A program made the position numbers and the translations under genes. A stretch of 64,000 nt of DNA from Cyanophora paradoxa CCMP329 (Eukaryota > Plantae > Glaucophyta). The DNA lies in assembly GCA_004431415.1 (NCBI GenBank), contig QPMI01000047.1:124001-188000 (forward strand). Reading direction: 5' to 3'. This document shows, in pieces, positions 1-19,112 of this stretch. The number at the start of each line of letters is the position of its first letter. Within the stretch, counting starts at the first letter, position 1. The notes beneath the pieces were generated by a model. The model ran no database searches. It saw only the letters and a list, made by a program, of their open reading frames with translations, and was not told where the DNA came from.

Positions 1-1124
1 TTATCCTTTTTCAGCCAGTAAACAATCGAACCGAATGTGACTCGCTTCCCTTCCACCATTTTCTTGCCTTTGCAAAGGCTCATGAACTTCTCATGACAGT
101 CATCATATTCATATTTTTCGCTTTTCTCCGAGAACTTATGAAATAGCTCTACTTGTTGCTTGCGAGGGATATTGTTGTCTTCGCAAGTATTGATTATAGC
201 AATACCTACGTCGATCCATGTCTTATATTCATTAGCTCGCTCGCCACTGAGGCTCATAATGACTTCTTGCAACAGTTCAAACGAAACCTTATTATCTTTG
301 AGATCCTCCAACACCTCCTCCTTCTTCTTCACAGGTTCTTTACAGGGCTTGTCCTTAACAGACTTGGGCGCCACCGTTTGCTTAGGTTCCTCAGGCTTTG
401 TAGCTTCCTTTGGTTTATCGACCGCAAAGGCTGACATGGTGTCTACTTCCACCCACTTAGTGGGGCGATCGAAACATTGCACCAGGAAAAAACCATCGTG
501 CATGCCTTCTTTCTCGCAATCAATAAACTTAGTGAACACCACATTCTTATCGACATCGTGCTTTGATTTGCTTTGAGCGTCCAAAGCTTCGCCTTTGCAG
601 CAACGGAGGCAGATCAGGTTTTGAGTTGTTCCATAAACGCCACTATCGAATTCGACATTTTTGATGAGACCCATCGCTTTAAAAAGCTTTGGAATGTCTT
701 CGTGGCGGCAGACCAGATCGGTAAATACGAAATGCCCGGAAATCTTGAACTTAGTGACATTCTCTTTGATTAAATGAACCCGGCGATGGCGAACAGCAAC
801 CGCAATTGTAGATCCCGACAGGGTTTGCAATTTCTTGCGCATTTCCCTGATGATCTCTTCGGCTTCCTTATAGTTGTCGGCTACATCAGGTTTCAGATCA
901 ACGAACTTGTCCAGATCCAGATAAACACGAGTCACTTGATCAGGTTGTATGCATTCCGCCCATGTAGGATAGGTCATATTGTCCCGTTTCTTTGAGTTAT
1001 TGATGCGCTCAATAATTTCATCATCGGTTAACTCAACCAAATTAGACGTATTGCGAGAACCAGTCAGACATTTCAGAAAGGTGCCCTTGACATTAGAGAA
1101 TGCGAATTTCGTGATAGCGTCCAT
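1..1124 (-). CDS. AEP primase/PrimPol + PriCT-2 domain, probably the N-terminal part of a D5-like primase-helicase (runs off the window edge)
   Basis: Own translation from ATG 1124: MDAITKFAFSNVKG...TRVYLDLDK (motif I DxD)...KISGHFVF (motif II SxH)...FDSGVYGTTQNL (motif III), Lys/Pro linker, then ERANEYKTWIDVGIAIIN...LFHKFSEKSEKY...VTFGSIVYWLKKD (PriCT-2). No stop before base 1, so absent from the ORF track. Confidence 0.85.
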   Translation of the reverse strand, partial: MDAITKFAFSNVKGTFLKCLTGSRNTSNLVELTDDEIIERINNSKKRDNMTYPTWAECIQPDQVTRVYLDLDKFVDLKPDVADNYKEAEEIIREMRKKLQTLSGSTIAVAVRHRRVHLIKENVTKFKISGHFVFTDLVCRHEDIPKLFKAMGLIKNVEFDSGVYGTTQNLICLRCCKGEALDAQSKSKHDVDKNVVFTKFIDCEKEGMHDGFFLVQCFDRPTKWVEVDTMSAFAVDKPKEATKPEEPKQTVAPKSVKDKPCKEPVKKKEEVLEDLKDNKVSFELLQEVIMSLSGERANEYKTWIDVGIAIINTCEDNNIPRKQQVELFHKFSEKSEKYEYDDCHEKFMSLCKGKKMVEGKRVTFGSIVYWLKKD

Positions 1125-1134
1125 CTTCTCTGTT

Positions 1135-1159
1135 TTACTCTAAGCGGAGAAAATATTTT
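1135..1159 (-). promoter_or_regulatory. Conserved viral upstream motif, copy 1 (AAAATATTTTCTCCGCTTAGAGTAA)
   Basis: 24/25 identical to 1576-1600; ends 10 nt upstream of the primase ATG. Confidence 0.6.
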
Positions 1160-1270
1160 TCAGGTTGTTCATTTTTTGCGCATTATCCTTAAATCCCTTT
1201 ACAGTTTTTTCCCGATGATAAAATCGATTAGCATCGGGGCAATCGATAGTATGGTAAGGAGCTTCCCGAT

Positions 1271-1564
1271 TTACATCGGAAAGCCGCACGAAAAATAAGG
1301 AATGCGCTCAGCGGCAATCGAGAGTTTGCGTTTTCTAATACTTACGGGGGCGCCCCGCTTTCCCATATGGCTTCCCTCCTCGGCTTTGCGACGATAATAC
1401 GATTCCAAAGCCATCTTCTTCTTGAATTCGCGATATTCGGGATCCTCGTTATACCGATTCCGCATTTTGATGATTTCACGGATCCGATAATTAAGTCCGT
1501 CGCCTTTCTTCATGTCCTCAGTGACAAGCTTTGCCTCAATATTTACAGCAGCGATGGTGGTCAT
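1271..1564 (-). CDS. Small basic viral hypothetical protein (97 aa)
   Basis: ATG preceded by the conserved motif; RNRYNEDPEYREFKKKMALESYYRRK resembles small charged helical viral proteins. Confidence 0.6.
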   Translation of the reverse strand: MTTIAAVNIEAKLVTEDMKKGDGLNYRIREIIKMRNRYNEDPEYREFKKKMALESYYRRKAEEGSHMGKRGAPVSIRKRKLSIAAERIPYFSCGFPM

Positions 1565-1575
1565 CTTTTCGTTCC

Positions 1576-1600
1576 TTACTATAAGCGGAGAAAATATTTT
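1576..1600 (-). promoter_or_regulatory. Conserved viral upstream motif, copy 2
   Basis: Near-identical to 1135-1159; ends 11 nt upstream of ATG 1564. Confidence 0.6.
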
Positions 1601-1614
1601 ATCAGTCGTATTTC

Positions 1615-1755
1615 CTATTTCTTCTTTAAATCATTTTCTGAGCTGTCATTTTTTGTGATCGAAGCGAGTTCTTCTCTACGTTTTTTAATAGCGACTTCCA
1701 ATGCGTATTGCGCGCGTTTCCTGTATAGGATCGCGTAGAGATCGGGGTCGGGCAT
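1615..1755 (-). CDS. Small viral hypothetical protein (46 aa, MPDPDLYAILYRKRAQYALEVAIKKRREELASITKNDSSENDLKKK)
   Basis: Own translation, below the ORF-track cutoff; tiles between neighbours and has a degenerate motif copy at 1771-1783. Confidence 0.45.
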   Translation of the reverse strand: MPDPDLYAILYRKRAQYALEVAIKKRREELASITKNDSSENDLKKK

Positions 1756-2106
1756 TCGATACTATTTAACGCGAAAATAGTTTCAGCGATCGTATTCGCC
1801 CAAATAAAGCGGATTTATTGGCGGATACGGGGAATCAACGCGAAAATGACCTTCCACGGAATTAGGGCACGAGCGGCGTCTTATATAGGATACTTGCACG
1901 TCTTCTATTGCTGTCTGTGGGACTATATTGGAGTTCGCAGGCACAGGCGAGGGCGATTGAGATCGGGACGATCGTGATTATCACTGTGGTTGGAATATAC
2001 AGATGATCGCCTACCTCCATTATCCTCGTCCGAAATGTCAAACTCTACGGTTGTGTCGCAGCATCCGGACTTACAGTGAGATATGAAATGCAGGTGAAAC
2101 ATCTCA

Positions 2107-2358
2107 ATGCATTGTGTGATGAAATTCATCGACCCTAATATTGCACAACGTATTAAATATTGGAGAAAAGAAAAGGGAATGAGGGTGTTACTTGCTCGCC
2201 TGTTCCCATACGAATTAGTCGACCTTATAATGGTGTTTGTGGAGCCGACCTGTCCCTTTTGCAAGGGAATTCATATTAAGACCCGCTCTAAATACGGGCG
2301 GATTCATTTATGTTTGAACGACTTGCACATTAGAAGCGACGACGCCCACCGAACATAG
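2107..2358 (+). CDS. Small hypothetical protein with CPFC/HLC, possible zinc ribbon
   Basis: ORF track; CxxC motif; only + strand candidate in the left block. Confidence 0.35.
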   Translation: MHCVMKFIDPNIAQRIKYWRKEKGMRVLLARLFPYELVDLIMVFVEPTCPFCKGIHIKTRSKYGRIHLCLNDLHIRSDDAHRT

Positions 2359-2725
2359 ATGACAGATTGGCACCCGGCTGTGCATGCACACCCGATGGGT
2401 TAACGAAACCGCCCGGCTTTGGTGCATTTTCAGCTATGACTGTCTCTTTTCTTTCGACTGTCTGAACATCGGGAACAGTTGCCCGCTTCTTTTCCATTTC
2501 CACGCGAACAGCTTGTTTAATCAGCTTGCGCTGTTTGTATTCCTTAGTGAAATCATCAAAGGCTCGCACAGTAGTGTCGTATGTAGCTAAACGCGCTTCC
2601 AGTGCCCTAAACTTCTCCTCTAATTCCTGACCGACTTTCTCGCCCTTGGTCACATAGACAGATGCCCGCTTTTTAGGGGCTTCCATCGATGCAGGTAAAG
2701 CGGCTGTTGCTTCGGCTTTTACCAC
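2330..2725 (-). CDS. Viral hypothetical coiled-coil protein with basic C-terminus
   Basis: 131-aa ORF with charged helix (ELEEKFRALEARL), ends GGRRRF; non-ATG start in the track, so it may be joined to 2737-3000 by a frameshift. Confidence 0.55.
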   Translation of the reverse strand: MVKAEATAALPASMEAPKKRASVYVTKGEKVGQELEEKFRALEARLATYDTTVRAFDDFTKEYKQRKLIKQAVRVEMEKKRATVPDVQTVERKETVIAENAPKPGGFVNPSGVHAQPGANLSSMFGGRRRF

Positions 2726-2736
2726 CTTATTATCGG

Positions 2737-3000
2737 TTAGCTTTTCGCCTGTGAGCTGTGATTCGGCGAGGATTGATCCGCCAGCTTTCTATCAGTGGAA
2801 TCGACCGGCTCCCGCTTAGCATCCGCCTTTTGAGCACGCTCTGAAACCTTTGTATTCGGGTCAATCAGATCGAAATCTATTTGGTCAGAAGCGGCAGCAC
2901 CACCAGTGCGACCGGCATCCTCCGCAGGATTGATCTTGCCAGCGACAACAGCGCTTTGATCTTCCATTTGGATAGCTTTCCGCGAGTTCTTGGGTGGCAT
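2737..3000 (-). CDS. Viral hypothetical protein (MPPK start)
   Basis: 87-aa ORF directly downstream of the ATPase, with a motif variant at 3011-3024. Confidence 0.55.
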   Translation of the reverse strand: MPPKNSRKAIQMEDQSAVVAGKINPAEDAGRTGGAAASDQIDFDLIDPNTKVSERAQKADAKREPVDSTDRKLADQSSPNHSSQAKS

Positions 3001-3023
3001 TTATCATTATGCGAGAAATTTAT

Positions 3024-3935
3024 TCAAAATTTACCCAATTTCTTTGCAAATTTTGGGCGGCGCTTTTCTTGGTATGCCAGCAATAGATTGGGGTCTTTAA
3101 GTAGGTCGGCTTCGATTATTCTTTTGGTGGATCGCTTTAAGGTGGCGACGTTTCCACTCACAGGTTTCGTTATATCGGTGGTTTGGGGTTGGTCGCCATT
3201 TACCGCGCCCGACGTCGGTTTTACCGACTGTTTACCAGCGGTCTTTATGTCGTCCGCCGCTTTTTTAAAGAAGCGCTTGAATTTATATTCGTCAGGCACC
3301 GGATCCGCTTTGCCCACAGAGAATTCCAGGCTGTATTTCGCATTGTTTACCACGATCACCTGATAGCTGTGACTGTATTCGGTCATCACCTTCTCGAACC
3401 AGCGCTTTTCGTATGGATTAAACTCGTCCTCAGCGCTCTCCATCTCCTTTCTATTGGGCAATGAGAACAGGAATATATATTCGGCGTTTACTCTGAGTGT
3501 CGGCGAGATCTTCGTAAGTTTCTGTGACAAAATCCACACGGACACAAACAGGTGTCTTCCAGCACAAAATAGCTGATTTAGTATAGGCTCACCCTTTCCC
3601 GCCATTGATAAACTCGGATTATCCACGAAATCGTCCAGCACAATTAACAGGTTACCGACTTTCTCCTTTTTCTTGATCCTCTCCTTGCGTTTCTGTAATA
3701 TATTGTCAATCAGCTTATGGTCGAAATCCTCATACAGATACGATGTGACATTATCATATTGATGATTCCAGATCGTGGAGGCGAATATCATCACCGAATC
3801 TATCTTGTCCTCGTTGTGGTAAAGCAGGTATTTCAAAAACACTGACTTCCCAGTTGCAGTTTTGCCCACAAAAACGGCGCGATTCGGAAATTCCAGGCTT
3901 CCCGGGTCAAACTCACTCAGATCTTGTATATCCAT
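3024..3935 (-). CDS. A32-like (FtsK/HerA superfamily) DNA packaging ATPase
   Basis: Walker A AVFVGKTATGKS, Walker B LLIVLDD, GRH arginine motif, WILSQ, PTLRVNAEY; likely start MDIQD at 3935. Confidence 0.92.
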   Translation of the reverse strand: MDIQDLSEFDPGSLEFPNRAVFVGKTATGKSVFLKYLLYHNEDKIDSVMIFASTIWNHQYDNVTSYLYEDFDHKLIDNILQKRKERIKKKEKVGNLLIVLDDFVDNPSLSMAGKGEPILNQLFCAGRHLFVSVWILSQKLTKISPTLRVNAEYIFLFSLPNRKEMESAEDEFNPYEKRWFEKVMTEYSHSYQVIVVNNAKYSLEFSVGKADPVPDEYKFKRFFKKAADDIKTAGKQSVKPTSGAVNGDQPQTTDITKPVSGNVATLKRSTKRIIEADLLKDPNLLLAYQEKRRPKFAKKLGKF

Positions 3936-3984
3936 TTCCCTTATTAGAAAGATATAAAAATTACGAAACGCCACAGCCCTCTAT

Positions 3985-4706
3985 TTACTCAACATCATTG
4001 AGGATCGCTTTATCACCGAGAATTCCTTTGGCTTTTGAGTTGTAGAAAAGTGCAGCCTCCTCCTTTGTGTTGCACACTTTTCTCCACCGCTGTTTCTTAT
4101 ATGAAAAGCATCCTTCCCATTTTCCAGTCGCTGTTTCAGTTACACCACGAAATCCACTTGTATTCAGTGAGTAAAGAGGAGGTTTTGGTTTAATTTCAGG
4201 GTTTACCTCGTTCAAAACAGCAAGATCTCCAAATAGCTCTTTTGCTTTTTGGTTGTAAGCGGCAGCAGCTTCTTCTTTTGTATCAAACGTTCCCAAATTG
4301 TATGGGACACCACTTTTTGAATATTTGCCCTGAACCGACCGGTTCTTTTCTCTTGGAAAACACCTTTGAAACCAGTTTTGTTTCGTTTTCTCATACCTGT
4401 ATTAAATACGCTGTCTTGCGGTGTTAAGAATCTAAGATTACAGCGACGATTATCGAGTTTGTCTCTACTGATATGATCAACAAAGTGCCCTTGTTGATGT
4501 CCGAAAATCCATTTGTGCATGTCGATGTTTTTCTTTACACCAGCAATGTAACCCCATGCATATCCCCGTTGGTTATGGTAATACCACTTGCTTATTTTCA
4601 TGACATGATCATAATCGGCTTCATCTATAAGCGCATACTTGCCCTCGCCATGCTTTCCACACAAAGCGATTCGCCTGATCCCTTCCATTTGTTCGAGATA
4701 CGCCAT
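3985..4706 (-). CDS. HNH endonuclease fused to two AP2 DNA-binding domains (one frameshift near 4315)
   Basis: MHKWIF...VDHISRDKLDNRRCNLR (HNH_3); KTGFKGV..RFRANIQK/SGVPYNLGTFDTKEEAAAAYNQKAKELFG; second AP2 TSGFRGV..KW..NTKEEAALFYNSKA. One extra A in the A5 run fuses the two track ORFs. Confidence 0.9.
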
Positions 4707-4780
4707 TAAATCTTATAATCGTCTTGTCCTTAAATAGACAAAGGATTAAAAATGACATCAAATTTTGCCCGCGACAGTCC

Positions 4781-6229
4781 TCATGCCGTCACGCGAGACA
4801 ATCCATTGGCATTCATCACAAGAATATTGTGGCAATAAGCCGAGATCTGAACACCGACCTTTGTCCAGGTGGCGAGGGGCGTGCCATTTGGTGTGAGCAG
4901 CAGGAAACTTGAAGCTGATTGAGTTAGATCGACGTAGCCAGTCGCCTTCTCACCTTTGAGCGCCGCTTTACCATCGAGAGCAAAGCAGAAGCCAGTGTAA
5001 ATGGGGCGCTTGTTGCTATCGATCCAGTTGGTCATCTTGAATTTATCGGCGAGCTCCATAGCAGCGGATTGCAGCGGGACACCAGTGTTGGAATATAGAT
5101 AATTGTTGTTGTTTAGGACTTGCATAACGACATTATCATCGTAGGCAAGAGTGCGGACAGTAGAGTGCCCTCCGAAATTGTTGCCGAGTGCATTTTCGTC
5201 GCGAACCTTGACAACGAGTGCGTAAACAAGTCCCGAAATTTGAGATAGTGACAGGCGGAGACCGGAGCCGAGAGCTTGACCGGTATAATCCGCAAACTGA
5301 ATATCAGTGTATGGGATGGCGATGCCAGAGGTCTTAACACGAGTAATGATTTCGCCCATCGTTTCCTCATCGATGTTAACAGCATCCATAATAAGACGAG
5401 GGGTCGTCATTTCCAGATTTGCAAGAGCAGGTGTAGGTGTGAGAGCCGCACTATCGAAAATCGCAGTGGCATTAGGGTGAGCTAAGGTCTTAATATTTCC
5501 GAAAGCAGCCGCAACAGCAAGCGTCGTCTCGCCATCAGTAGAATTGGCAGCGGTAATAGCAGCAGTGTTATTCTGAGCGTAAACGCCAGGAACCGCCGCA
5601 GTTTCGAGAAGCGCAGGGGTTTGGAAGTGCACCTCGACCGCGATTTCGGATGGGAGCGCACCGATGGGCACACCAGCATCGAGGAAGCTCGGAATTCGCA
5701 TGGTAAAAATGCCACCGGCTTGGTTGCCGCCCTCTACCTTAGGTCCGAGATGCAGCCCATGCTGCCGCTTCTTTTGGTCGAATTCAGCCGGAGTGTTAGC
5801 CAGGAAAGCGTAATCTACCAGTCGCTCAGCCGGAATAATTTGCTCATACGACCCGTATTTAATGCTGACTCGCTGAACAAACGAGCCAGGAAGCCCGCGG
5901 ACGAATCCAGTGTTGAATAGATCAGCCGAGCAGTCAGCAGAGGTCTTGGCGATGGCAGTCAGCGCCTTCGCCGATGGAATGGTAACTTGGAGGCTAATAC
6001 CATTGCACCAATTGTAGCGAGGGAGGTAGAAGACCACACGAGTGGTAGCACCAGTAGAGGAGAACAGATTGCCGGGATCCGCAATTGGAAGCACCTCCAC
6101 ACGAGAAGGCTTGAATTGTTTGTCCACACCCACGATAAATCCGCGATCCAAAAGCATGCTCTTGTAGTCCTCCGGGGTTTCGAGGACGGATTTGAGCGTG
6201 AGGCGGCTAAGCGAGGTCGTGGGATCCAT
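4781..6229 (-). CDS. Probable major capsid protein (double jelly-roll, PLV type)
   Basis: 482 aa, beta-rich, soluble; position between ATPase and penton-like gene; RVVFYLPR, FVQRVSIKYG, VKTSGIAIPYTD and terminal AYCHNILVM resemble PLV MCP layouts. No diagnostic motif; needs HMM/structure confirmation. Confidence 0.72.
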   Translation of the reverse strand: MDPTTSLSRLTLKSVLETPEDYKSMLLDRGFIVGVDKQFKPSRVEVLPIADPGNLFSSTGATTRVVFYLPRYNWCNGISLQVTIPSAKALTAIAKTSADCSADLFNTGFVRGLPGSFVQRVSIKYGSYEQIIPAERLVDYAFLANTPAEFDQKKRQHGLHLGPKVEGGNQAGGIFTMRIPSFLDAGVPIGALPSEIAVEVHFQTPALLETAAVPGVYAQNNTAAITAANSTDGETTLAVAAAFGNIKTLAHPNATAIFDSAALTPTPALANLEMTTPRLIMDAVNIDEETMGEIITRVKTSGIAIPYTDIQFADYTGQALGSGLRLSLSQISGLVYALVVKVRDENALGNNFGGHSTVRTLAYDDNVVMQVLNNNNYLYSNTGVPLQSAAMELADKFKMTNWIDSNKRPIYTGFCFALDGKAALKGEKATGYVDLTQSASSFLLLTPNGTPLATWTKVGVQISAYCHNILVMNANGLSRVTA

Positions 6230-6262
6230 ATTTCGTTTTTATCTTCCGCTGAGAAATTTATT

Positions 6263-7549
6263 TTAGAAGAACGGATTATTTTTTACAGCCACCCCGCTCA
6301 ACGCATTCGTTAAATTGCCGCAATGCGGGTAGTCCTCATATAGCATTTTCGCGAATCCCTTATTAACAATGCGCTGTAAATCGTCGTCGGGCTCATCCAC
6401 TCCCATAGTGAGTTCCAAAATGAATGTGTGCTCGCAGCTTCCGAGGAAATATCTATAACCGCTCTCTGTCAGAATTTGAACGGTTAAACTATCAAAGGAA
6501 AGGCGGGTGTTAAAGTATTTCGTGAAAGCATCCGCCCCATAATTAATTAGCTCAGCATCCGCATAGGCTGTGCCTTTCGAAATCGGGATCTTAGCGAGGA
6601 ATCCATTAGTAGCCTCGGTGCATGTCGTAAAAAGCGAGCAGTCCGGCTCTGTGATCTTTAAAACTATTGCATTATCCGGTGTATAATCAGGGGCAGTGCC
6701 TCCGGCTATGCCTAAGACCAGAGCCGTCGAATTATAATTGCGGAATGCATCACCAGCTGAGTAAACGACACCACTCCCAGCAAAGGCTGTGTAGCCCGAT
6801 CCGTTGTATTGATCTATCATTATATTCTCTCTGATCGATGTAAACCCGAGAAGAGTCATCGTGCGATAGGCGAGCACCTTTCTTTCATTCGCAGTAGACG
6901 CAGTGGCATTACTCGGACCATATTTCGTGAAAGCTATGTAGACATAATCACTCGAATAAAAGCATATGGCATTTAATGTGCTCTCAAAACGACATCTCAC
7001 CACCGGGTAAAAGGTTCCCCCTGTCGATGCGTAGCTTGGATTAATTTTTGTATCGATCATATCCTTGATGTAGTTGCCAGTTCCATTTTTCGTTAAGATG
7101 TTATCGATTGCAGTTGCAAGGTCGGTTCCAGTCGAGTATGTGCCAGGAGGGATCGTAATTGCTACGTCCCTGTATCGGGTATATCTTCTGAAAGTGTTAA
7201 GGTAATCAGGCGGTATATAGTTGCCTTGGTCGCCGAAATCTATCGCTTTGTATGCTTCGTATATTGCAGTCGCTTGTGTTTCTCTTATTTGCTCAGTGGC
7301 ACCATTGAGCTGTCCACTCGAAAATCGGTAAGGAAATGATATGAAAATTGTATTAGCATCATCGGCTTTCGTCTCCCCGATTTCAGTATAGAATTGAGGG
7401 CTTGGAACCGTGGGAATCGTGTTGGAAAATTCGATCTGTCGCACAGCGATGCTCTTCACATTGTGGTATTGCTTTGGAAGGGTCACCTTATAGGAATGAG
7501 CCGAGCCCTCTGATCGATCACGGCTACTGATGCTGAGATACTCGCGCAT
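6263..7549 (-). CDS. Minor capsid (penton-like single jelly-roll) protein 1 with large insertion
   Basis: N-term YLSISSRDR..SYKVTLPKQYHNVKSIAVRQIEFSNT; ITIPPGTYS; C-term FLAKIPI..FDSLTVQILTESG..EHTFILEL, the usual PLV/NCLDV penton pattern. Confidence 0.8.
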   Translation of the reverse strand: MREYLSISSRDRSEGSAHSYKVTLPKQYHNVKSIAVRQIEFSNTIPTVPSPQFYTEIGETKADDANTIFISFPYRFSSGQLNGATEQIRETQATAIYEAYKAIDFGDQGNYIPPDYLNTFRRYTRYRDVAITIPPGTYSTGTDLATAIDNILTKNGTGNYIKDMIDTKINPSYASTGGTFYPVVRCRFESTLNAICFYSSDYVYIAFTKYGPSNATASTANERKVLAYRTMTLLGFTSIRENIMIDQYNGSGYTAFAGSGVVYSAGDAFRNYNSTALVLGIAGGTAPDYTPDNAIVLKITEPDCSLFTTCTEATNGFLAKIPISKGTAYADAELINYGADAFTKYFNTRLSFDSLTVQILTESGYRYFLGSCEHTFILELTMGVDEPDDDLQRIVNKGFAKMLYEDYPHCGNLTNALSGVAVKNNPFF

Positions 7550-7576
7550 TTTATTCTTTATTAATAGGAAATAAAA

Positions 7577-8549
7577 ATGATTCGGAAGCCAGTTAACGAT
7601 TTCTATAATGGCAAGTTTACGAGGTCAATGTTAATATCGATTCTATTGAGCGCAGTGCAGGGCACCCGGGAGAATATACAGTAAAGCTTTCTCAGCGACT
7701 TCTGAACGTAAAAGGGTGCGCATTGCGAGCGCCGAGCTCCCAAACACGATTTATGCTGTCACCGATAATTCCAGAGGCGTGACCATACAGGGAATGACGA
7801 ACAGCATCACCTTTTCCCCTTTCCCTGATATTGGGAACTACACCCCCGCGATTTGGGGATATGGTAATAAGAACTTAGGCTACTCGGGCAGCTTTGTCGA
7901 TGTAAACCCTCTCACAAGCGAAAGCGTCACAGTCTACTACAAGTGGCTCTATAATCCAGCGACTATGAAAATTACGTTTTATTCGAGCATTCCCCTCGCA
8001 CTGAGCTGTGCACATGACGACTTTGCAAGGTTCCATGGAATGATCAAAGGGGATATGTATCAAACAATTCCAGTTGGTGAGGGTTCAGAGCATCTCACGG
8101 TAGACTATTTACCCCTCACACCCAGCAATCCAAAATACTCATTTCTACAAGCCTATGAGGGCAAAACAAAATACCCCGCCGGAATATCTGTGCTTCCATT
8201 CCCTCTCGAACATGTAGTGACCTTCCCGAATGCGATTAATCTAAATCCGACCCCCTATGTTTACCTACAAATTAAAGAGTTTACGCCCTTTTACGACAGG
8301 TATATGGTGGCAGCAAAGACAGATGAGGGCGGAAATGCAAACCTCGCTAAGATCCCACTAACCAGCCCCTTGGGATCGTTTGTTTACTACCTGACATTCC
8401 GCAGAATCGATACTGTGGAGTTCTTTAATTCCCACGATCAGGCTTATGATATAGACACGCTCACAATTAAATGGCTCGACGCCTACAATAATGTAGTCAA
8501 CTTTAATGGCGTTAATCACAGCTTTATATTAGAGGTGCTATCGGGTTAA
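7577..8549 (+). CDS. Minor capsid (penton-like) protein 2; two 1-nt frameshifts near the 5' end
   Basis: Restoring one A near 7613 and one near 7712 gives MIRKP..VNIDSIERSAGHPGEYTVKLSQRLLNVKRVRIASAELPNT; C-term PYVYLQI..LAKIPL..IDTLTIKWLDAYNNVVNFNGVNHSFILEV. Confidence 0.8.
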
Positions 8550-8567
8550 AATAATCTTATATTACAA

Positions 8568-11500
8568 ATGAGTATCACGAATCTCCCCTTTATCACTCGG
8601 GAAACCTTGTATTTGGATGACGGTTTCGAGCTCAGCAGTAACATTACCGCTTCCAATGTGACCATATCTTCGAACCTTGTGGTAAAAGACTTTCTATTAA
8701 ATCAGAGCAACCTTGAATATATTGATATCACCAGCAATCTCCCTTTTACCTATGGCACTGATAACTCAGCCCTCGTTATCTATCATGGGGGCTCGCCTGT
8801 TGCATTCTTTGGCAGCAATTTCCCCACTGTGCGAACCTTTCAGCACGAAATCAATAAAGCCCGCCCCATCCCACTGACAGCTGTCGTAGAATGGGATCCT
8901 GTTAAATATTCGCAGAGCATCACAAGCAATATTACACTCACTCGACCACATTTAATTGAGGTCATGGGGGTCGACCTTGTAAAGGAGTTTTATAGTGAGC
9001 GATTCACAAGAAACGAGCGAGATGTAGCCCAGGATCTCGAAATCTCGGGTTTATCAATTGCTACCGCAGCAAACACGGCAGGGCTCGCTGTTTTAACAGG
9101 TGCAATCACCATCACTGATGCGATCATGTATTTATCCCGCGATTTGGTGCCTTTGCTCGATCATCAATTTAATCTCGGGCAATCTAACACTGATGCTGTT
9201 AAGAAATGGCTGAATGTGTATGCCTATGATGGGTGGTTTGATGACTTGCACACGACTAACCTTTATAGCACGACCTCAAAAACAAGTAACATAATCTTGC
9301 CTTTCAATCACTCAGTCCGACCCAGTGATTTACCCACTGATGAGAGAGCTCTGATCAGCTATAACGACTTTAACAGCAATCTTTCCCGCTCAGTTTCGCG
9401 GACTGAGACCTACACTGTCGAGGGATACCCTCAGCAGCTCGCAAATGGGGTCTATGTCGCTTATGTAGGCAAACCTACATATACATTCACTTGGGATCAG
9501 TTGGGTGTCACAGGTTTGGAGAGTATACCCACTGTTTCATTGGTGGATCACACAACTTATTATAATCCTATCACTAACAATAATGAATCTAATAAAGCGT
9601 TTATCCAAAATGTCACCTCCACAGGGTTTCAGGTCTCGTTTGTCATTAACGAGACATACAATTTACTTATCATCCGAAACAACTCATTGAGTTCCGAAGC
9701 TACTATTAGTTTCACTCTTAACATCAATTATATCACCCCTGAATTCGATAGCAAACCCAGAGTGAAGGTTTACCGAGATTTACAAGGTAGCAATATCGTG
9801 CCCTTCTCACAGAATTTCGATCTTGGGGCGAATTCTTTGAGGTGGAACACAGTTTATACTTTGAATGCAAACACCTGTAATATTGTGGTCGCAGGGTCAT
9901 CGGCTACTATTGGAGATCTGACCGCCCCTTTCAAAAAGGAGTATCTTAAAGAGCTGTATATTACAAAGTCTGATTTACCAGATGCTATTTCGTTGGTGCT
10001 CTCCCCGACTCCCAGTATATCCTATCACAATGTGAAAGACACCAGTAATGTAGTGCAGAGGGAAGCAAAGTATTCCAGGCATCCGAGATATCAGCAACAA
10101 CATATAGATACCTTGCAGCGGTTCCAGCGAATTTTAATTTCACATTTGAGACACCATTTGTTTCCCCTCCTACTATTGAAATAACTGACACGAATTTGTA
10201 TGTGATCAATAATGGGTCGACCACCTCTATTAACAATGCACCAGCCGGCTACTCCCATTTGTTGCAACTAACATAACAACCACCGGCTTCACACTTGTCG
10301 GAAATGCAACAGTGACATATGCTCTTACAGCATATCCTGTTGGTTGTATTTTGCGAAATTTAATCTTTCAGCGATCCCACCTGTGTCCCTTTCTCTCCCT
10401 TTACTATCAATTGGAAGGCAACAGGAACAATACCTCGTTTGACTCCGAAGATCGATTAAAAATAAGGTATCCTCTCGATGTGACCGACCTCCATACTACG
10501 AGAATAAATGGCAGAATTTCGTATTTAATGGAACCAATGCGACTCTGATCGATAATCGAGTTACAAATAATTACTTTTTCGATTCTCGATATATTAATAC
10601 TTGCAACATTGTCATACAGAACACGTTTGAGAATCGAAGTAAGACCTTAACAGTCACCTTGCCCACTCACTCGAATGTCTCAGATGGATTTACTATTACC
10701 TGTTCAATCGCAATTACACCTCTTATATTCCATATCCTCTGAGACTGTGACATGAGCTATCCCAAAGTCACCCTAACATCGACCAATGCTCACTTCTTTG
10801 GATCCACGGACTTTATGACCTTCTTTGCTTTCACATCCTCTACTGATGGGCTCTTAGTTTATTACACTTTCAGATATGATGCTGTTTGGACTCAGCTTGA
10901 CAGCCACCCAAATACAGATGTAATCGAAGTGGGCGATAAGAAATATATAAAAACCGCTTCCCCATGGGTGTGCACTGTCCGGCTCGATGACAGATACACT
11001 CCCAACCTAAATAACATTGGAATGCACTCGACATGCAATATTTATGTGCAAGGTGCAATTTCGGCTACCAAATATTTCGAGGGAGGGAACTGTGATGCAG
11101 GGCATCGATTGCTATCGCGAAATGGATTCTTTGAGTCATTCAGTGGGACAGCTCTACCGCCCTTTATCAGGGACACAGTGTATGATACCACATGCAATAT
11201 TTGGGTGTGTCGATCTGTGAGCAATCCGCCTGTGACAAAGGAATTATATAAATATCTGTCAGATACCTATGGTGCAATCTCAGGATCCTCCACAGGAAAT
11301 CCAGCGACGGCTCCCATCGTGTTTGCAAATGCATACACAGCGCCGACATCATTAGCAGGGTCGACAGAGCCGCCACCTAACGATCCCAATCCGAACCAGC
11401 CTAACCCAGATCCCGATTCAAAAGATCCCCCTACAACTGATCCAGATCCAAACACGACACCTAATAATCCCAGTAATCCTACTAATCCAGTTGGATCACC

Positions 11501-11882
11501 AGGAATGGATCCAGGGACGTTAGTGCTTCTCATTCTCTTGCCGATTCTCGGTGTTGGAGGACTTGTGCTTGCATACAAATTCCGAGCTTTATGTTTTGCA
11601 TGCTGGGATAGGGTCATTGCAGGTGCAGGTAATAAATACTCAACACCAGAGCTTAATGTGACCCAAACAGCCGAAGGAGATGTGGGGTTAGAGGTGAGGT
11701 CAGCCGAGGGGCATGGTCTTAGTGTTGTGAGAACTGATCAACCACCAGCAAGCAGGGCAGCACCCAAAAAATCACGAGCAGAACGAATGGCTGAATCAAT
11801 AATAAAAGACAATGCAGACTTTATGGCGGAAATGGCACAGCGAGAGGGCAGAACATATGAGCTTCTCCCAATGCGACCTTAA
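8568..11882 (+). CDS. Large fibre/receptor-binding-like protein in several frameshifted segments; C-terminal Pro/Asn/Asp linker and hydrophobic helix
   Basis: Tail-fibre-like repeats (LVPLLDHQFNLG..KWLNVY; IVPFSQNFDLGANSLRWNTVY), TSNI/TCNI motifs, H-type-lectin-like segments (PTVSL..QNVTSTGF; FETPFVSPPTI..TNITTTGF), then PNDPNPNQPNPDPD and LVLLILLPILGVGGLVLAY. Could be two genes. Confidence 0.6.
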
Positions 11883-11911
11883 TTTTTGTAGAATGCCTTA
11901 ATAGAGAAATA

Positions 11912-13374
11912 ATGACGGAACCCATAGTAGAAACGACAATAAAGAATGCTGTATTGGATAATAAATTTTATATAACCCACGCCAATATACCCAGTGAATC
12001 CAATGACCTAATTGTTGATCTAAAAGGTTATGTGATGGGAGCTATGGCTTCTAACCTATGGAATGACCTTTTCGGTTACGAGTTTGGTCACATCTATGAC
12101 ATTGCAAATGGGATCGGCTATGTGGATGCAATGGCAGGCACAGCCTTTCGAAATCTAAATTGCAACTGTGTGGGTGGGTGGATGTTTCAGATCTGTTCCA
12201 ATGTCGATCCCACTATTGATCCCGCCACGATTACCTTTGATTGCAATCTATTTGCCCCCAAAACCATTTTCTCCATCACTTGCAATCTCGTTAATTCGGA
12301 TGTGCCCATAGTAGCACCTGTAATTGGTGCATCAAATATGTATATCCAAAGAAATCCGGTCGTGCATACAGGCGCCGAATTTATATTAGGCGACAACACC
12401 CCAATTAGTCGACTCGAATTGCCCACGAATTTCACCTTTAATCTCGTGGATGAGTTCCCTAACAGTCAAAGTCTCATGTATTTCACCTCTGAAAATCGCC
12501 TTTCGGGTGCATTCTCACCCATTGAGCTGTCTATACCGAAACAAAAGGTGAGCTATAAAGAGCTTACAGATGTGCCGGCGGGATTTAGTGGGAAGTGGAG
12601 TGATATCATTCAGAAGCCGACTTGGAGTAGTGTAGCATACACAGGAAATTACTATGATTTAGTAGGAACTCCCGATTTCACAAGCTATATACCTCGTTGG
12701 ATTGATCAAGGTGTAATTATATCAGAATCTACACTTCCTTTCAATGGGACATGGATAGGTTATTTACTAAGCCGAATTTGCATGCTGTTGCCACAAGTGG
12801 TGACTACAACGATTTAACTAACACCCCTATTGCACCGACCTTGCATGCTGTGGCTACAAGTGGAGACTACAATGATCTCATTAATACACCGAACCTACAT
12901 GCTGTGGCTACAAGCGGGAACTATGACGATTTAATTAACACACCTACTTCGCCACCTACTCACAATCACAGCATAGAGTTGCTCACGAATTTCGGTAATT
13001 ATGTGAATCCAAATGCATATGTGCAACAAGGGACAGCGAATGTAGTTTTGGAAAATAGAATATACAATGCAGGAGAGACCTTTCAGTTATCGGGAACGGT
13101 CGTATTCTCTACCCCATTTTATAGTGATGCAGTGATTACTACCTCTATCGAGAATAGCTATAACTCTGTAAATTGGGAAATGACCAACTGTGTATATATC
13201 GGACCTGAGTATGTTAATAATGAGAGAGTAGGACTAAAAACTAAGTTTACATGGATCGTTAGATTCACAGCTTTCGCATCGACTAATTTCACAAATGTCA
13301 CAGCAGCAAATCGCACCCTTAAACTCCATTGGATTGCTGTCGGACCTCTCCAAAACAATAATATTCTCACTTAA
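11912..13374 (+). CDS. Fibre protein with phage-type (L)HAVATSGDYNDL repeats and C-terminal lectin/gp53-like domain; frameshift near 12750
   Basis: FSGKWSDI, VAYTGNYYDL, three LHAVATSGxYxDLxNTP repeats; GTVVFSTPF...LHWIAVG terminus. Confidence 0.7.
12779..12945 (+). repeat. Three coding repeats LHAVATSG(D/N)Y(N/D)DLxNTP
   Basis: catgctgt.gc.acaag.gg recurs at about 12781, 12844 and 12898. Confidence 0.85.
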
Positions 13375-13395
13375 TAAGTAAAGAACAATCAAAAG

Positions 13396-14364
13396 ATGTC
13401 GACTGTATTCACACCTGTGTTTTCTTTGAGTGCAAGTGCTGTCCATAATGTTCAACACACAGTCTATGATTTATCTCCGAGCCACCCTTCGACTGAGACA
13501 GCGAAAACCGATTCTTTTAATGACCAAAGCATACTCAGAGTCAAAGAACTCAGAGCTGACAAGATTGATGGACTCGTTAAAGCTACTCAAATGATCGTAT
13601 CGAATCGACCCGCAATATCTTCGGGGCTGGTCACCAAAGAAAATCTATATGAGGGTCAACAGGATTCCAAAACGGCTTTTAATCCGGCTGATAGGAATTC
13701 GGCGGCATTTCAAGTTTACAGTGGTGGGGCATGGATTGGGACTGGCTTAGGGGTTAATGGGAGTGCAACAATTACTGGAAGCCTTACAGCTGGATCATTT
13801 GGGACAGTTAAAACGACAACTATTGATTCTGGGGCAAATACAGAGTTGGTGATTAAGCGCAATGGGGCAACTGTTGCTTCGACATATTCAACAGGTGTGT
13901 CTCCAAATGATTCGTATGGTTTAACAATAAATGGGAGTAAATGCTATCTTGCTCTTCCAAACCACCCCCGTTTCTGTGTTGCACTAACAGCTGCAATCGC
14001 TACAAACGGAACCATTGGTAACTGGAATTATACATTTCTAAATCATGGAAACCATCTAGCAACATCAACAGGCATCTTCACAGCACCTGTTTCAGGTCAT
14101 TATAAGTTGATCTTTTCAGGAACAACCACAGCAAATAATAGTGATACACAGGTTATCCTGCGACAAAGTAACCTTACAACTCAACTTATTGCATATTCTC
14201 CTGCACCTGGATCACCACTGAGTAGATCTATTGGGTTTAATTTCATTGTTAACATGGTAGCTGGAGATACTGTGAAGCTAGATCTTTATGGTGGTGGATT
14301 GCTTGCATCAGGAACAGGGGCGATGTATACTGTGTGGTCTGGTGAATTAATTTCTGCAACATAG
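13396..14364 (+). CDS. C1q/TNF-like head-domain fibre protein
   Basis: PRFCV..FLNHGNHLATSTGIFTAPVSGHYKLIF..VNMVAGDTVKL..TVWSGELI matches the C1q G.F.AP..G.Y and L..GD.V..FSG.LI pattern. Confidence 0.82.
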   Translation: MSTVFTPVFSLSASAVHNVQHTVYDLSPSHPSTETAKTDSFNDQSILRVKELRADKIDGLVKATQMIVSNRPAISSGLVTKENLYEGQQDSKTAFNPADRNSAAFQVYSGGAWIGTGLGVNGSATITGSLTAGSFGTVKTTTIDSGANTELVIKRNGATVASTYSTGVSPNDSYGLTINGSKCYLALPNHPRFCVALTAAIATNGTIGNWNYTFLNHGNHLATSTGIFTAPVSGHYKLIFSGTTTANNSDTQVILRQSNLTTQLIAYSPAPGSPLSRSIGFNFIVNMVAGDTVKLDLYGGGLLASGTGAMYTVWSGELISAT

Positions 14365-14373
14365 AATAAAAGA

Positions 14374-14637
14374 ATGTCGAACATCTACCAAGTAGTTCTA
14401 ACTGACACTGAGAAACTGGGAATGGAATACTGTGCCTACTCTGTTCAGGATTGGATCGATAATATGGCTCATAATAGGGCGAGAATCGCGATTGATGAGA
14501 TTGTGGACAAAGAAGTTAAATCGTGTATTGCCGCTGGAATTCCGATTCCACTCACAAAGGAAGCGATTGTAGAGCAAGCGTTTGCAAGGGGGACTGTTCG
14601 AAAGGCAAGCGAAATTCCTGTGAGTGCTCCTATGTAA
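14374..14637 (+). CDS. Small protein resembling those following C1q tail-fibre genes in aquatic bacteriophages
   Basis: VLTDTEKLGMEY..SVQDWIDNMAHNRARIAIDEIV; starts 9 nt after the C1q gene; resemblance recalled, not searched. Confidence 0.6.
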   Translation: MSNIYQVVLTDTEKLGMEYCAYSVQDWIDNMAHNRARIAIDEIVDKEVKSCIAAGIPIPLTKEAIVEQAFARGTVRKASEIPVSAPM

Positions 14638-14820
14638 AGAACTCGAATTCGAAGAATGAGAGATGGGTTAATTGTTATTTTTCATAGATCATGCATAAGA
14701 AAGGCATGTATCTTGCATAGTGGGCGGGGCGCACTTATCCCCTTCGTATCCACTTCGTATCCACTTCATATCCACTTTGTGTTCACTAAATTATATCGCA
14801 CTGATTCAGTTTGCATTTTG

Positions 14821-15838
14821 CCCCCACCCTACACCCCACCCTATACTACAATCTCGTTATTTCTATACATATTTACTATCTAATTTAATAGAGTTTATAC
14901 ATTGAAATAAGTGAGGTGTATCGATAAGTAATACAGGGTGGGGAGGGTGGGGTTGGGTGGGGTCTTTTTTGCCCAAAAATATTTGACCCCCAAAAATTTA
15001 AGGGATTCAAAAAAATGCCCCACCTCACCCCACTTACCCCACCCTATCGAAGTCCGCACGATATCATAGTAGGCTACATCGGGATTGCGATCATATCACA
15101 GTGTATACAGTGAGGGTGGTGCCCCACTTTCTCACCCCACCCTATCGATTCGCGATTCAGGGATCGCGAAATATACAGCACATGATACTTGTTTTCTTAG
15201 TGATCGCGCCGTTCTAATACGATCTGAATATATCATATCTCGTCGGTATCACGTCGGTTCAATATCGTAATTATTAAATGGTTGGCTGATACCACTTTCA
15301 CACCCCACCCTCACACCCACCCGGTATTAATTTAACATACATAATCTCTATACTTTATACATTAATTACATTGAAATCAATCATAAATATAATAAAAGAT
15401 ACAGGGTGGGGTAAGTGGGGTTGGGTGGGGTCTTTTTTGACCAAGAATTTTGAGGGGGAATTATTTTAGGGAATTCAAAAAAATGCCCCACCTCACCCCA
15501 CCCGCCCACCCTATCGAAGTTATCGAAGTCCGATAAGTATCAAACCGGAAGTAAAAATAACACATCATGATTTTATGTGTGCCATCTTAGATTGGACTAC
15601 CATACCGATACCACTCACACCCCACCCTCACACCCCACCCAGTATTAATTTAACATACTCAATCATACATATTTATATTTAAATTACATTGAAATCAATC
15701 ATAGATAAAGAGAATAATACAGGGTGGGTAAGTGGGTTGGGTGGGGTCTTTTTTGACCAAGAATTTTTGGGAGTGAAACATTTTAGGGAATTCAAAAAAA
15801 TGCCCCACCTCACCCCACCCGCCCCACCCTATCGAAGC
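14821..15838. repeat. Three ~230-bp subterminal units of opposed GGGTGGGG/CCCCACCC tracts around AT-rich spacers
   Basis: Units at about 14821-15053, 15288-15520 and 15608-15838, each ending caaaaaaatgccccacctcaccccac..cccaccctatcgaag. Confidence 0.9.
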
Positions 15839-16092
15839 TACGTAGGTGATACACATGACTATATGAGGCGCGTCCCAAGCAGCACATTGTAGTTGTTTTA
15901 GATACACATCGCGCATCGTAAACACATATCGGCTATATCGCGATTACATATTATATATACATATTTTACAAAGATTCCACGATACTTATATTATTTTTAT
16001 TGATTCATTTACGAACTACCGATAGAATACATATCACATATCGATATACACTATGATAAAAATGCTAATATCTTTATATAACTTATAGTAAC

Positions 16093-16163
16093 ACACATAT
16101 AAAAACAAATATTATTATCCTGAGCGGAACGCGAGGGATAATAATATTTGTTTTTATATGTGT
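16093..16163. repeat. Terminal hairpin: perfect 28-bp inverted repeat with 15-nt spacer
   Basis: 16093-16120 acacatataaaaacaaatattattatcc is the exact reverse complement of 16136-16163. Confidence 0.95.
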
Positions 16164-17173
16164 ACCTTGGCGCGCGCATTCGATGATGTTTAATTACATA
16201 AGACCCGATAAAGATCTAGAACGCCTCCCTGACGGATTTCGAAATCGCAGCATTCACGATTGCGGTCATTCAGCGGCATTACAATTGGGTATATATGCGT
16301 GTATTTAGGGAAATCCGTTCTTTGATGCAGGCGGCTAATGATCGTTTCCACTTTTGCAGGATTTTGCAGCGAGCCAAGCGAATTTGACCAACCAGCAAGA
16401 GTTCATCATCGCTCTCACAAATTGTGCCACGCAAGTCGCAGCAGAGTTTCCGTTGGGGCGAAGCAGAAAGGGCTCTGCGGGCTTCCGGCACGGCGCCTCC
16501 TCGAAACCAGCAAGCGAGAATATGGTTAAGTTGATTATGAGAATGGCGCACATGGGAGGCTTGTGCGCGCCGACTATGATCAAGCCTCGAGGCGCTGATG
16601 TGTACACACCAATGACGCAATCGAAGTACGTACTGTATTCAATAGTGACAGACTTGCCTCCACTGGCTAGGCACTGGGCCTTCGCGTCGTCTTCACCGAT
16701 GTTGCTCTGATGCCACAGAGCGGTTGATGCCTTGCAGTCGTAGGAAGCGTAGCAGGACGAGTCTAACACAATGTGCAGATTAGGACTTCGGAATGTGTTA
16801 AAATGTGCGATCAAACGCAAACGCACTTCCTCCCATGATGTCGATGGATGCAGGCCCTGAGGGGTTGTTCGAAACCTGAAGAAGCGCACACCTCACGCGT
16901 TACTCGCGGCCATAAGATGCGTGCACCTCGGGGCCTATACGTGTACGTACGGGCACGCGGGCGGCGGCTTCGCGTCTTTGTGCTGCGGAGTTGTGCTACT
17001 AACTTGCGCAGGGCCGCGACCGGCAGTCAGCGGCAGATCGATCTGGATTCTGGACTGAGCCTCGGCCCGGCGGAGATCGAAGATGCGAGGGCCGGTAAAC
17101 AGAAGGAGGGTGGATTATTGGGCTCAGTGCTCCTAGTAGGGTCGGCAAGCCTGAGTTGGGCTCAGTGCTCCTA

Positions 17174-17415
17174 CCGTGTAACACTTAAATATGACGGCAT
17201 CTGTGATGTCGTTTATAAAACCTGGACTCCCGTGCGTGACATATGACGCTCCCAAATTATGTCGCTATACAATTCGAGGTTTGTATGGGGCGCGGTAATT
17301 TTGTATGGCGCCCAGGAATTATGACGCTCCCAAATTATGTCGTTATAGCAAAATGTCGGCGACATAATTTGGGGATGACATAATAAAGTGCGCGGCATAC
17401 ATAAGTGTTATACGG
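17174..17415. mobile_element. MITE, TA target duplication, Tc1/mariner-pogo-like TIR
   Basis: TA|ccgtgtaacactta ... taagtgttatacgg|TA (13/14 match); internal repeats tatgacgctcccaaattatgtcg. Confidence 0.75.
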
Positions 17416-17540
17416 TAGTAAAGCCCGGCGGCCAGCCAGCCGCTGAGCTCGACTCTGCTCGAGCGGCGGCGAGTCCAGCCAGGCGGACCGTCCGGGCCCC
17501 GGGACCGTCGGACCCGGATCTCCCGGAGTACTAGTCCGCG

Positions 17541-18554
17541 ATGCCCGGTTATCAAAGCATCATCCGCACGGCATGCGCCGTCGCAAAGGAATCTGGCTAC
17601 CCCGGGGGCGGGCCGTGGGCGGACTTCATCTGTATCGACCAGAAAGCTTCCCCCGAGGTGAAAATGAAGCAGGTCATCGCAGGCTGGGACGGGTACGTGA
17701 GTTTGAGCCAGATCAATGTCGACGTCTGCGTCGATTTAGTATATATATTATGTCTGACTGCGATTCTGACCGGTACCGAGTGCAGGTACTCCGATTGTTT
17801 GAGCCTGCTTATGTATATGTGCACCCCCGAGAGAGCGAAAAGGCTGCGGCATTACCTGTACGGGACGGGCATGGCCGAGCTCAACATGCGGCTTGCTTCT
17901 GCAGCGCAGGAGCAAGAAGAATACAAGCAAAGGCGCACATCCTTCGAGGTCATGGGGCAGTTTGGCGACGAGCAGCATTGGATGCAAGCGGATAGATTCG
18001 AGAAGGCCGCCAGGAGGGCATTCGTGTTTGAGTTCGTACCGAAGCGAGTGTGGATCATTTCAGAACTTGCGTTAATGTGCATCAATGACAAGATCGTTCA
18101 GAACCTTGGCGCGCGCATTCGATGATGTTTAATTACATAAGACCCGATAAAGATCTAGAACGCCTCCCTGACGGATTTCGAAATCGCAGCATTCACGATT
18201 GCGGTCATTCAGCGGCATTACAATTGGGTATATATGCGTGTATTTAGGGAAATCCGTTCTTTGATGCAGGCGGCTAATGATCGTTTCCACTTTTGCAGGA
18301 TTTTGCAGCGAGCCAAGCGAATTTGACCAACCAGCAAGAGTTCATCATCGCTCTCACAAATTGTGCCACGCAAGTCGCAGCAGAGTTTCCGTTGGGGCGA
18401 AGCAGAAAGGGCTCTGCGGGCTTCCGGCACGGCGCCTCCTCGAAACCAGCAAGCGAGAATATGGTTAAGTTGATTATGAGAATGGCGCACATGGGAGGCT
18501 TGTGCGCGCCGACTATGATCAAGCCTCGAGGCGCCGATGTGTACACACCAATGA
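17541..18554 (+). pseudogene. 3'-truncated duplicate of the HET-domain-like gene
   Basis: PWADFICIDQK..EVKMKQV and KRVWIISEL match the HET (PF06985) W.D..CI.Q..E...Q and R.W..QE motifs; cut at the repeat junction before the transmembrane exon. Confidence 0.55.
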
Positions 18555-19112
18555 CGCAATCGAAGTACGTACTGTATTCAATAGTGACAGACTTGCCTCC
18601 ACTGGCTAGGCACTGGGCCTTCACGTCGTCTTCACCGATGTTGCTCTGATGCCACAGAGCGGTTGATGCCTTGCAGTCGTAGGAAGCGTAGCAGGACGAG
18701 TCTAACACAATGTGCAGATTAGGACTTCGGAATGTGTTAAAATGTGCGATCAAACGCAAACGCACTTCCTCCCATGATGTCGATGGATGCAGGCCCTGAG
18801 GGGTTGTTCGAAACCTGAAGAAGCGCACACCTCACGCGTTACTCGCGGCCATAAGATGCGTGCACCTCGGGGCCTATACGTGTACGTACGGGCACGCGGG
18901 CGGCGGCTTCGCGTCTTTGTGCTGCGGAGTTGTGCTACTAACTTGCGCAGGGCCGCGACCGGCAGTCAGCGGCAGATCGATCTGGATTCTGGACTGAGCC
19001 TCGGCCCGGCGGAGATCGAAGATGCGAGGGCCGGTAAACAGAAGGAGGGTGGATTATTGGGCTCAGTGCTCCTAGTAGGGTCGGCAAGCCTGAGTTGGGC
19101 TCAGTGCTCCTA

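Follow-up and report, generated by a model that had tools for sequence, protein, structure and literature searches.

We analysed a 64,000-nt stretch of the genome of the glaucophyte alga Cyanophora paradoxa CCMP329 (GenBank assembly GCA_004431415.1, contig QPMI01000047.1, positions 124,001 to 188,000 of the forward strand; hereafter the window), of which bases 1–16163 very probably belong to an endogenous virus of the Polinton-like type (Polinton-like virus, PLV). The window begins inside this element, and bases 1–16163 are its right-hand part. They have a G+C content of 43.8%, against 69.8% in the host DNA at 21500–57000, and their open reading frames (ORFs) are closely packed, lying mostly on the minus strand to the left of 7550 and on the plus strand to the right of 7576 (Table 1). 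The PLV hallmarks found here are a double jelly-roll (DJR) major capsid protein (MCP), an A32 ATPase, and integration in a protist genome with a contrast in G+C content and a sharp end. The genes for morphogenesis (the ATPase, the MCP and two pentons) are contiguous within 5.5 kb, beside the element end. An initial annotation, made from the letters of the sequence, had described a gene-dense integrated PLV with an A32 ATPase, a capsid candidate and a primase, transcribed divergently from 7550–7576. The Pfam matches, the step in G+C content and the packing of the ORFs bear out this block and its module set, and, if two losses of one base each are bridged, penton 2 does begin with the ATG at 7577.

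Table 1. Features of the viral element and of the adjoining host DNA, in window coordinates
Feature	Position	Strand	Remarks
Primase, open at window edge	3–1124	-	Pfam PriCT_2 E 2.3e-13; AEP-type motifs (DxD, SxH) read from the sequence, before PriCT-2
97-aa ORF, no family	1271–1564	-	13-nt upstream motif in common with primase gene
Low-complexity ORF, no family	2330–3000	-	223 aa read with X at 2769
A32-like genome-packaging ATPase	3024–3935	-	Pfam Pox_A32 E 2.1e-10, above curated cut-off
HNH endonuclease	3985–4706	-	Pfam HNH_3 E 4.8e-6 (in 4212–4706); phrog_99 E 6e-19
Major capsid protein, double jelly-roll type, 482 aa	4781–6229	-	42% to P0001, E 5e-74
Penton-like minor capsid protein 1, 428 aa	6263–7549	-	Atlas look-alikes 0.97–0.98
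Spacer between divergent penton genes	7550–7576		27 bp, all but two bases A/T
Penton-like minor capsid protein 2, 324 aa	7577–8549	+	X at 7622 and 7713; resembles penton 1 at both ends
Long beta-rich gene, putative fibre or vertex protein	8568–10755	+	~730 aa when five breaks are read as X
376-aa ORF with Pro/Asn/Asp linker and C-terminal transmembrane-like segment	10752–11882	+	Hydropathy 2.65 at residues 256–274
Fibre gene	11912–13374	+	Three 54–63 bp phage-tail-type repeats; 487 aa assuming one base lost between 12703 and 12815
C1q-domain fibre-tip protein	13396–14364	+	Pfam C1q E 7.5e-8
87-aa protein with freshwater-phage homologues	14374–14637	+	49% to Limnohabitans phage DC33, 44% to Synechococcus phage S-SRM01
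Subterminal array	14821–15840		Three imperfect ~110-bp palindromes, G-quadruplex-type arms, within ~317-bp duplicated unit
Terminal 71-nt hairpin	16093–16163		28-bp perfect arms; 15-nt loop holding 3-bp stem with GAA loop
Inferred 6-bp target-site duplication ACCTTG	16164–16169	+	Contig breakpoints
Host tandem array cut by element	16164–20489		~1,937-bp unit, 2.2 copies, 99.7% alike

Capsid, replication and fibre genes

The assignment of the MCP is secure by homology. Among 1.84 billion representative proteins, two homologues were found, P0001 and P0002, of which P0001 is a C. paradoxa protein from tig00020904. It agrees in printed sequence, length and contig name with row 106 of Table S2 of Bellas 2023, which gives for this row an HHpred value of 98.47% to an iridovirus major capsid protein over 406 columns (PMC10120064). 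The DJR fold initially proposed for 4781–6229 stands through P0001 and this published match, while our own low-confidence model backs the first jelly roll only. The single-sequence fold reached a pLDDT of 31, and a model from three sequences a pLDDT of 40 with a pTM of 0.38. Viral jelly-roll capsids led the Foldseek search with the latter model (TM 0.20–0.29), and realignment of residues 37–306 gave Z 11.8 to faustovirus, 8.4 to mavirus, 8.2 to a non-viral jelly roll and 7.1 to Sputnik. The top 26 structural rows were nucleocytoplasmic large DNA virus (NCLDV) capsid or scaffold proteins, and the Atlas look-alikes were Nucleocytoviricota capsid clusters (0.97–0.98; recognition 1933). This NCLDV lean is a lead and does not discriminate, because no PLV, Polinton or mriyavirus MCP stood among the structural rows listed. 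Pfam holds no family for the MCP, P0001 or P0002; a word-based homologue search found none among 7,994 candidates, a profile search found only P0002 among 7,995, and a sequence search of the PDB with the MCP profile gave one chance match.

The two penton genes stand head to head on a spacer that is likely a bidirectional promoter. Pfam has no family for either protein, and the motifs at their ends are presumably those of pentons. Clusters resembling penton 1 in the Atlas carry DUF5901 in 13% and V18-19 in 11% of their members (recognition 2000). The two proteins resemble each other at the ends alone (36% over 44 aa and 28% over 75 aa), and phmmer scored the pair at 13.7 bits, against 4.9 for the best of 500 shuffles. 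Judged by these alignments they are an old, divergent pair. The penton duplication of the initial annotation thus survives as a relationship; a recent event was rejected because the pair is too divergent, its similarity being confined to both ends.

Of the AEP–PriCT-2 primase first proposed, the PriCT-2 part is upheld by Pfam. The AEP part is predicted from the motifs DxD and SxH, which we take to be those of this domain, beside which PHROGs gave a DNA primase match (phrog_15962, E 4e-4, residues 251–366). Read contigs extend 307 and 712 bases beyond window base 1, and a helicase domain fused to the primase probably lies upstream of the window. The ATPase has one homologue, P0003 (69%), and the HNH ORF is 164 aa as assembled, or 240 aa on the assumption that one base was lost between 4215 and 4400. 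The initial annotation had seen no protein-primed polymerase (pPolB), integrase or protease. Family scans agree: neither pPolB nor a cysteine protease was detected in the visible 16 kb, where a primase is present instead, and Pfam found no rve or tyrosine recombinase integrase among the visible ORFs of 1–16163. The other 13 ORFs scanned with Pfam all fell below the curated cut-offs, NCBIfam gave nothing credible for the ORFs tested, and Rfam nothing within 1–21500. An exact-sequence look-up found none of 13 window ORFs in the protein collection. No relative was confirmed in the viral contigs scanned with the ATPase, the MCP profile, the primase and the 87-aa ORF, or in the metagenome contigs scanned with the MCP profile.

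Identical copies of a 13-nt motif stand on the minus strand at 1153 and 1594, some 30 nt upstream of two genes, the primase and the 97-aa ORF, with no match in the host part of the window. A related 9-nt motif lies at 3021 and 6259, ahead of the 223-aa ORF and the MCP gene, with one match in the host part. These motifs are a candidate viral promoter. The ~700 bp at 1600–2330 hold short ORFs only; read contigs differ there at many letters, and their depth changes near 1650. Two modules possibly meet here, a variable one for replication and a shared one for the capsid.

To the right of the pentons, the initial annotation had counted about 6 kb of fibre genes. The label is established for about half of this length, because the ORF at 10752 has a membrane-anchor-like segment and the ~730-aa gene at 8568 is without a confident family, giving only sub-threshold H_lectin matches (E 0.35 and 0.16). 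The 376-aa ORF, whose start overlaps the preceding stop (ATGA), matches no family in Pfam, PHROGs or NCBIfam; it is not a plain fibre and may be an envelope or entry protein. A single fibre of ~1,100 aa over 8568–11882 was considered and rejected, as none of the ways tried of combining the six listed breaks extends the frame beyond 730 aa. The gene at 11912–13374 matches phrog_17509 (E 5e-10), and its repeat part has tblastn matches in 33 of 50,697 phage records, the best being the tail fiber protein of Ralstonia phiRSL1 (E 2e-12). The C1q protein found no match at E 1e-5 in the search of the phage collection. Pairwise, it weakly matches (E 6e-5) a gene in the same position of cyanophage S-SRM01, and the S-SRM01 homologue of the 87-aa protein sits in the tail region, behind that gene. 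This arrangement suggests a two-gene fibre cassette taken up from freshwater phages. Contig depth over the C1q region (13824–14442) is 22 to 245, against hundreds to thousands in its neighbours; the fibre tip therefore seems specific to few copies of the element, as expected for receptor-binding swaps.

Element end, insertion site and copies

The fold-back terminus that had been noted at 16163 is a hairpin with perfect arms. It is the longest perfect inverted repeat (loop of at most 40 nt) in the window, where the next longest measures 15 bp, and none of 200 shuffles folded as well (z −9.6 and −10.7). The neighbouring array, initially read as iterons, consists instead of three imperfect palindromes spanning 14935–15830, and no test run points to origin function.

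Read contigs of sequencing runs X1, X2, X5 and X19 were aligned to 1–16560 and those of X1, X2, X3 and X19 to 15560–18145. At the hairpin, an X2 contig breaks at 16120, exactly the loop start, and X1 has the 71 nt as a contig of its own from 16093; contigs of X3 and X19 pass through unbroken. The contig ends of X1 and X2 fit a loop present in both orientations, and library artefacts at hairpins could also produce them. No joint changing strand at the hairpin was seen among the read-contig joints listed. The depth ratios of terminus to primase, ~0.7 (X1), 1.6 (X2) and 2.8 (X19), do not separate one from two termini per element.

Beyond the hairpin the element cuts a host tandem array. Flank contigs match from 16164 in all four runs, element-end contigs stop at 16163 in three of the four, and host-unit contigs end in all four at 18108, which has the same phase in the unit as 16169. 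The X19 flank contig starts at 16164; those of X2 and X5 carry 24 further letters. With words of 31 letters, the 24 extra letters therefore place a branch six bases past the junction, and this was predicted before 18108 was examined. The simplest reading is that the left junction, which lies outside the window, repeats ACCTTG, making a 6-bp target duplication probable from the breakpoints. Such a duplication suggests an rve integrase encoded outside the window; rve integrases are reported typically to leave target duplications of 6 bp (PMC12220804), and we hold with good confidence that the element was integrated in this way. Neither the duplication nor the insertion into a 1.94-kb tandem array figured in the initial annotation, which had named a chimeric join as a possible undoing of the PLV assignment. 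The recurrent breakpoints of the read contigs at 16163/16164 argue against such a join.

The element is likely one of a diverged family with many copies in the host. Twenty runs of one organism (18 studies plus two rows without a study) share 59–64% of the sampled words of 7000–16600, and the family occurs in all 20; no RNA run shared words of this region among the runs listed. In the four runs aligned to 1–16560 all 30 bins were covered, by 782–2656 pieces per run. Roughly 55–60% of the pieces are less than 99% alike, and the many between 90% and 99% indicate diverged copies. Contig depth at the terminus exceeds that of the host unit by a factor of ~4–11; contig depth does not equal copy number, and the unit is itself present two to three times in the window.

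Most of the listed frameshifts are losses of one base next to a short run, which is a pattern of long-read error. In the 12 indel rows listed out of 38, a set without the breaks near 4300 and 12750, read contigs carry an extra base at most of the frameshift sites, including 7622 in penton 2, where the base is present at full depth in four of four runs. Decay as the main cause was rejected on two grounds, the type of loss and the presence of the base in the read contigs; losses confined to this copy are possible.

The host unit itself contains a 194-aa ORF (17541–18125) with a weak HET match only (E 0.03), and the virus lies at the 3' end of the position of this ORF in the unit. It also holds an element of ~250 bp resembling a miniature inverted-repeat transposable element, with 26-bp inverted ends (17171–17418 and 19110–19357). 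Read depth rises there and loose ends occur at its borders, so this element is probably multi-copy. Further into the host DNA, 25600–26400 is a long coding repeat of Ser/Pro/Thr type in a host gene, with periods of 12–96 bp. At 57000–64000 the G+C content is low again, at 53%; the ORFs there are fragmented, a hydrophobic one lies where the window ends, and no viral hallmark was recognized by eye.

Proposed life cycle and alternatives

Taken as a whole, the locus is best explained, with reasonable confidence, as an integrated, likely multi-copy PLV that likely inserts by an rve-type reaction and is predicted to be copied from a fold-back end. A DDE/rve integrase encoded to the left of the window would insert the element with a 6-bp duplication. 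After release, the 71-nt palindrome would fold back and offer a 3' end, which a host or helper-virus polymerase could extend, and the AEP/PriCT-2 primase, probably fused to a helicase, would replace the protein-primed polymerase. Packaging by the A32 ATPase would then fill a jelly-roll capsid with the genome; at the capsid vertices, two penton types may bear fibres derived from bacteriophages. Within this scheme, hairpin-primed replication is a tentative proposal to which we give a little under an even chance. Pox- and asfarviruses in general have hairpin telomeres. A bolder thought, which we regard as speculative and improbable, is that this glaucophyte family combines a giant-virus-type capsid, retrovirus-like integration and poxvirus-like flip/flop hairpin telomeres and is a living intermediate between PLVs and the Nucleocytoviricota.

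Several points weigh against the account of a PLV integrated by an rve enzyme and copied from its hairpin. The left end, the integrase and the helicase would fall outside the window. At the junction, no contig bridges 16163/16164 among the pieces listed (352 further pieces exist), contigs could also break at 18108 through a variant base elsewhere among the host-unit copies, and X1 and X2 are one sample, the four junction runs representing at most three samples. Among the proteins, the MCP model is poor and its capsid match covers residues 37–306, the Atlas recognition of both the MCP and the penton falls under the tool's mark of 2300, and the AEP catalytic domain found no match in Pfam, NCBIfam or PDB sequence searches. 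Finally, accidental annealing at single-strand breaks has been put forward as an alternative origin of such palindromes (10.64898/2026.07.28.741278).

The last point belongs to the alternative that survives best, although we consider it unlikely: the virus would be real and its hairpin a passive scar of fold-back repair at integration or excision, copied along with the family, while the primase would start internally at the G-rich subterminal repeats. In favour of this, a primase is encoded by the element itself, and the three palindromes near its end might act as an origin. However, the hairpin occurs at family-level depth in the contigs listed, without differing letters, and its loop is no plain mirror but folds further. 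In addition, the association of palindrome and target duplication recurs in an unrelated host (10.64898/2026.07.28.741278).

It is also possible, but decidedly less probable, that the element is an integrated mriyavirus or a Zoravirus-type small relative of giant viruses, which would replicate by an HUH rolling circle, carry VLTF2/3, RuvC and Mriya48 to the left of the window and use the hairpin as an HUH origin or resolvase site. The Nucleocytoviricota look-alikes of the MCP and its 26 leading NCLDV rows would fit, and so would the Mriyaviricetes-related regions that another preprint reports in a glaucocystophyte assembly. RVE genes present in 57% of Zora and 62% of VC218 genomes (10.64898/2026.06.19.733378) would fit as well. 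Yet no VLTF, RuvC, HUH or Mriya48 family match was found in the visible ORFs of the 16 kb, the lean of the capsid does not discriminate among structural rows that list no PLV or Polinton MCP, and integration genes are reported to be absent from mriyaviruses proper (10.64898/2026.06.19.733378), whereas the breakpoints here point to a 6-bp duplication.

We consider it very improbable that these bases terminate a far larger insertion of giant-virus origin, or that free viral DNA was chimerically joined to a host contig. The NCLDV-leaning capsid, the hairpin end, the opening of the window inside the element and the lack of a bridging contig among those listed would agree with this, but the ATPase, the MCP and both pentons lie side by side in 5.5 kb next to the end, as in small viruses. 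Contigs of the host unit are broken precisely at the junction and again six bases further, all 20 runs of one organism contain the family, and ~366 MCP hits of this kind are tabulated for a 100-Mb C. paradoxa assembly (PMC10120064).

Relation to known viruses

The initial annotation had suggested an unrecognised PLV lineage. The closest MCP homologue is already listed in Table S2 of Bellas 2023, where the iterative-search columns hold 366 C. paradoxa MCP hits in two clusters of 272 and 94 (PMC10120064), and genes of the same kinds appear in Table S6 of Bulzu 2025 (PMC12220804). By our own count, for which we matched the columns of Table S6, its 156 glaucocystophyte elements include A32 in 139, rve in 85, pPolB in 49, HNH_3 in 40, PriCT-2 in 15, lipase in 89, AdoMet decarboxylase in 66 and peptidase S74 in 37, with no tyrosine recombinase and no protease (PMC12220804). 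Because the capsid homologue and the gene repertoire are already tabulated, the element is a new example and not a new kind, a new member of a catalogued, unnamed and undescribed Polinton-like group, likely of glaucophytes. The word undescribed holds for the main texts searched, in which the group appears neither named nor described, and does not hold for the supplements that catalogue it: the main text of Bellas 2023 contains no occurrence of Cyanophora, Glauco or hairpin (PMC10120064), and that of Bulzu 2025 none of hairpin (PMC12220804). Full-text literature searches that covered few subscription journals listed no paper with this family or its ends as its subject; supplements of preprints could list such elements or their hairpins.

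Twin pentons, phage-type fibres and terminal palindromes each have a precedent; a PTR-PTR-H_lectin fibre, for example, is reported in one C. paradoxa PLV (PMC12220804). What this element adds is a hairpin of 71 nt beside a probable 6-bp duplication, where the replication gene is a primase and the capsid leans towards the NCLDVs.

With the endogenous viruses tabulated for C. paradoxa, the element shares A32, a minor capsid protein (mCP), PriCT-2, HNH_3 and the absence of a protease (PMC10120064, PMC12220804). It differs in that its MCP shares just 42% identity with the one listed, that PriCT-2 is a minority replicase in the table (15 of 156), and that lipase, peptidase S74 and AdoMet decarboxylase, which are common there, have no match in the visible part of the element. 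A small genome, an NCLDV-leaning MCP, A32 and an mCP recall the NCLDV-like PLVs (Zoravirus VC102, VC218 and Zephyrvirus) and the Mriyaviricetes (10.64898/2026.06.19.733378; PMC11253617). However, VLTF2, VLTF3, RuvC, HUH endonuclease and Mriya48, the core list given for the Mriyaviricetes (PMC11253617), were not detected in the visible 16 kb. Two mCP genes occur in several Trimcap group B PLVs (10.64898/2026.06.19.733378), and duplicated or paralogous mCPs in the Yaraviridae; unlike in these groups, one MCP is seen here and the two pentons stand head to head on a 27-bp spacer.

The closest parallel to the element end comes from the stramenopile Halocafeteria seosinensis, in which terminal palindromes beside target duplications are reported to go with non-pPolB replicases and RVE, and hairpin priming was proposed (10.64898/2026.07.28.741278). 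Its virophages and PLV subtype 4 share with our element a terminal palindrome by a target duplication (probable here) and a non-pPolB replication gene; the host supergroup and the capsid type are different, and a particular clade of RVE integrase marks the Halocafeteria elements, whereas no integrase was found among the visible ORFs here. Subtype 5 has a palindrome of 52 nt, compared with the 71-nt hairpin and its structured 15-nt loop in C. paradoxa (10.64898/2026.07.28.741278). The question on which the element bears is how PLVs without a protein-primed polymerase start replication. The preprint of 2026 put forward hairpin priming on the basis of a single stramenopile host and called for a broader survey (10.64898/2026.07.28.741278), and the C. 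paradoxa family offers an independent, testable case, with another capsid type, a culturable model alga, a defined end and multiple copies.

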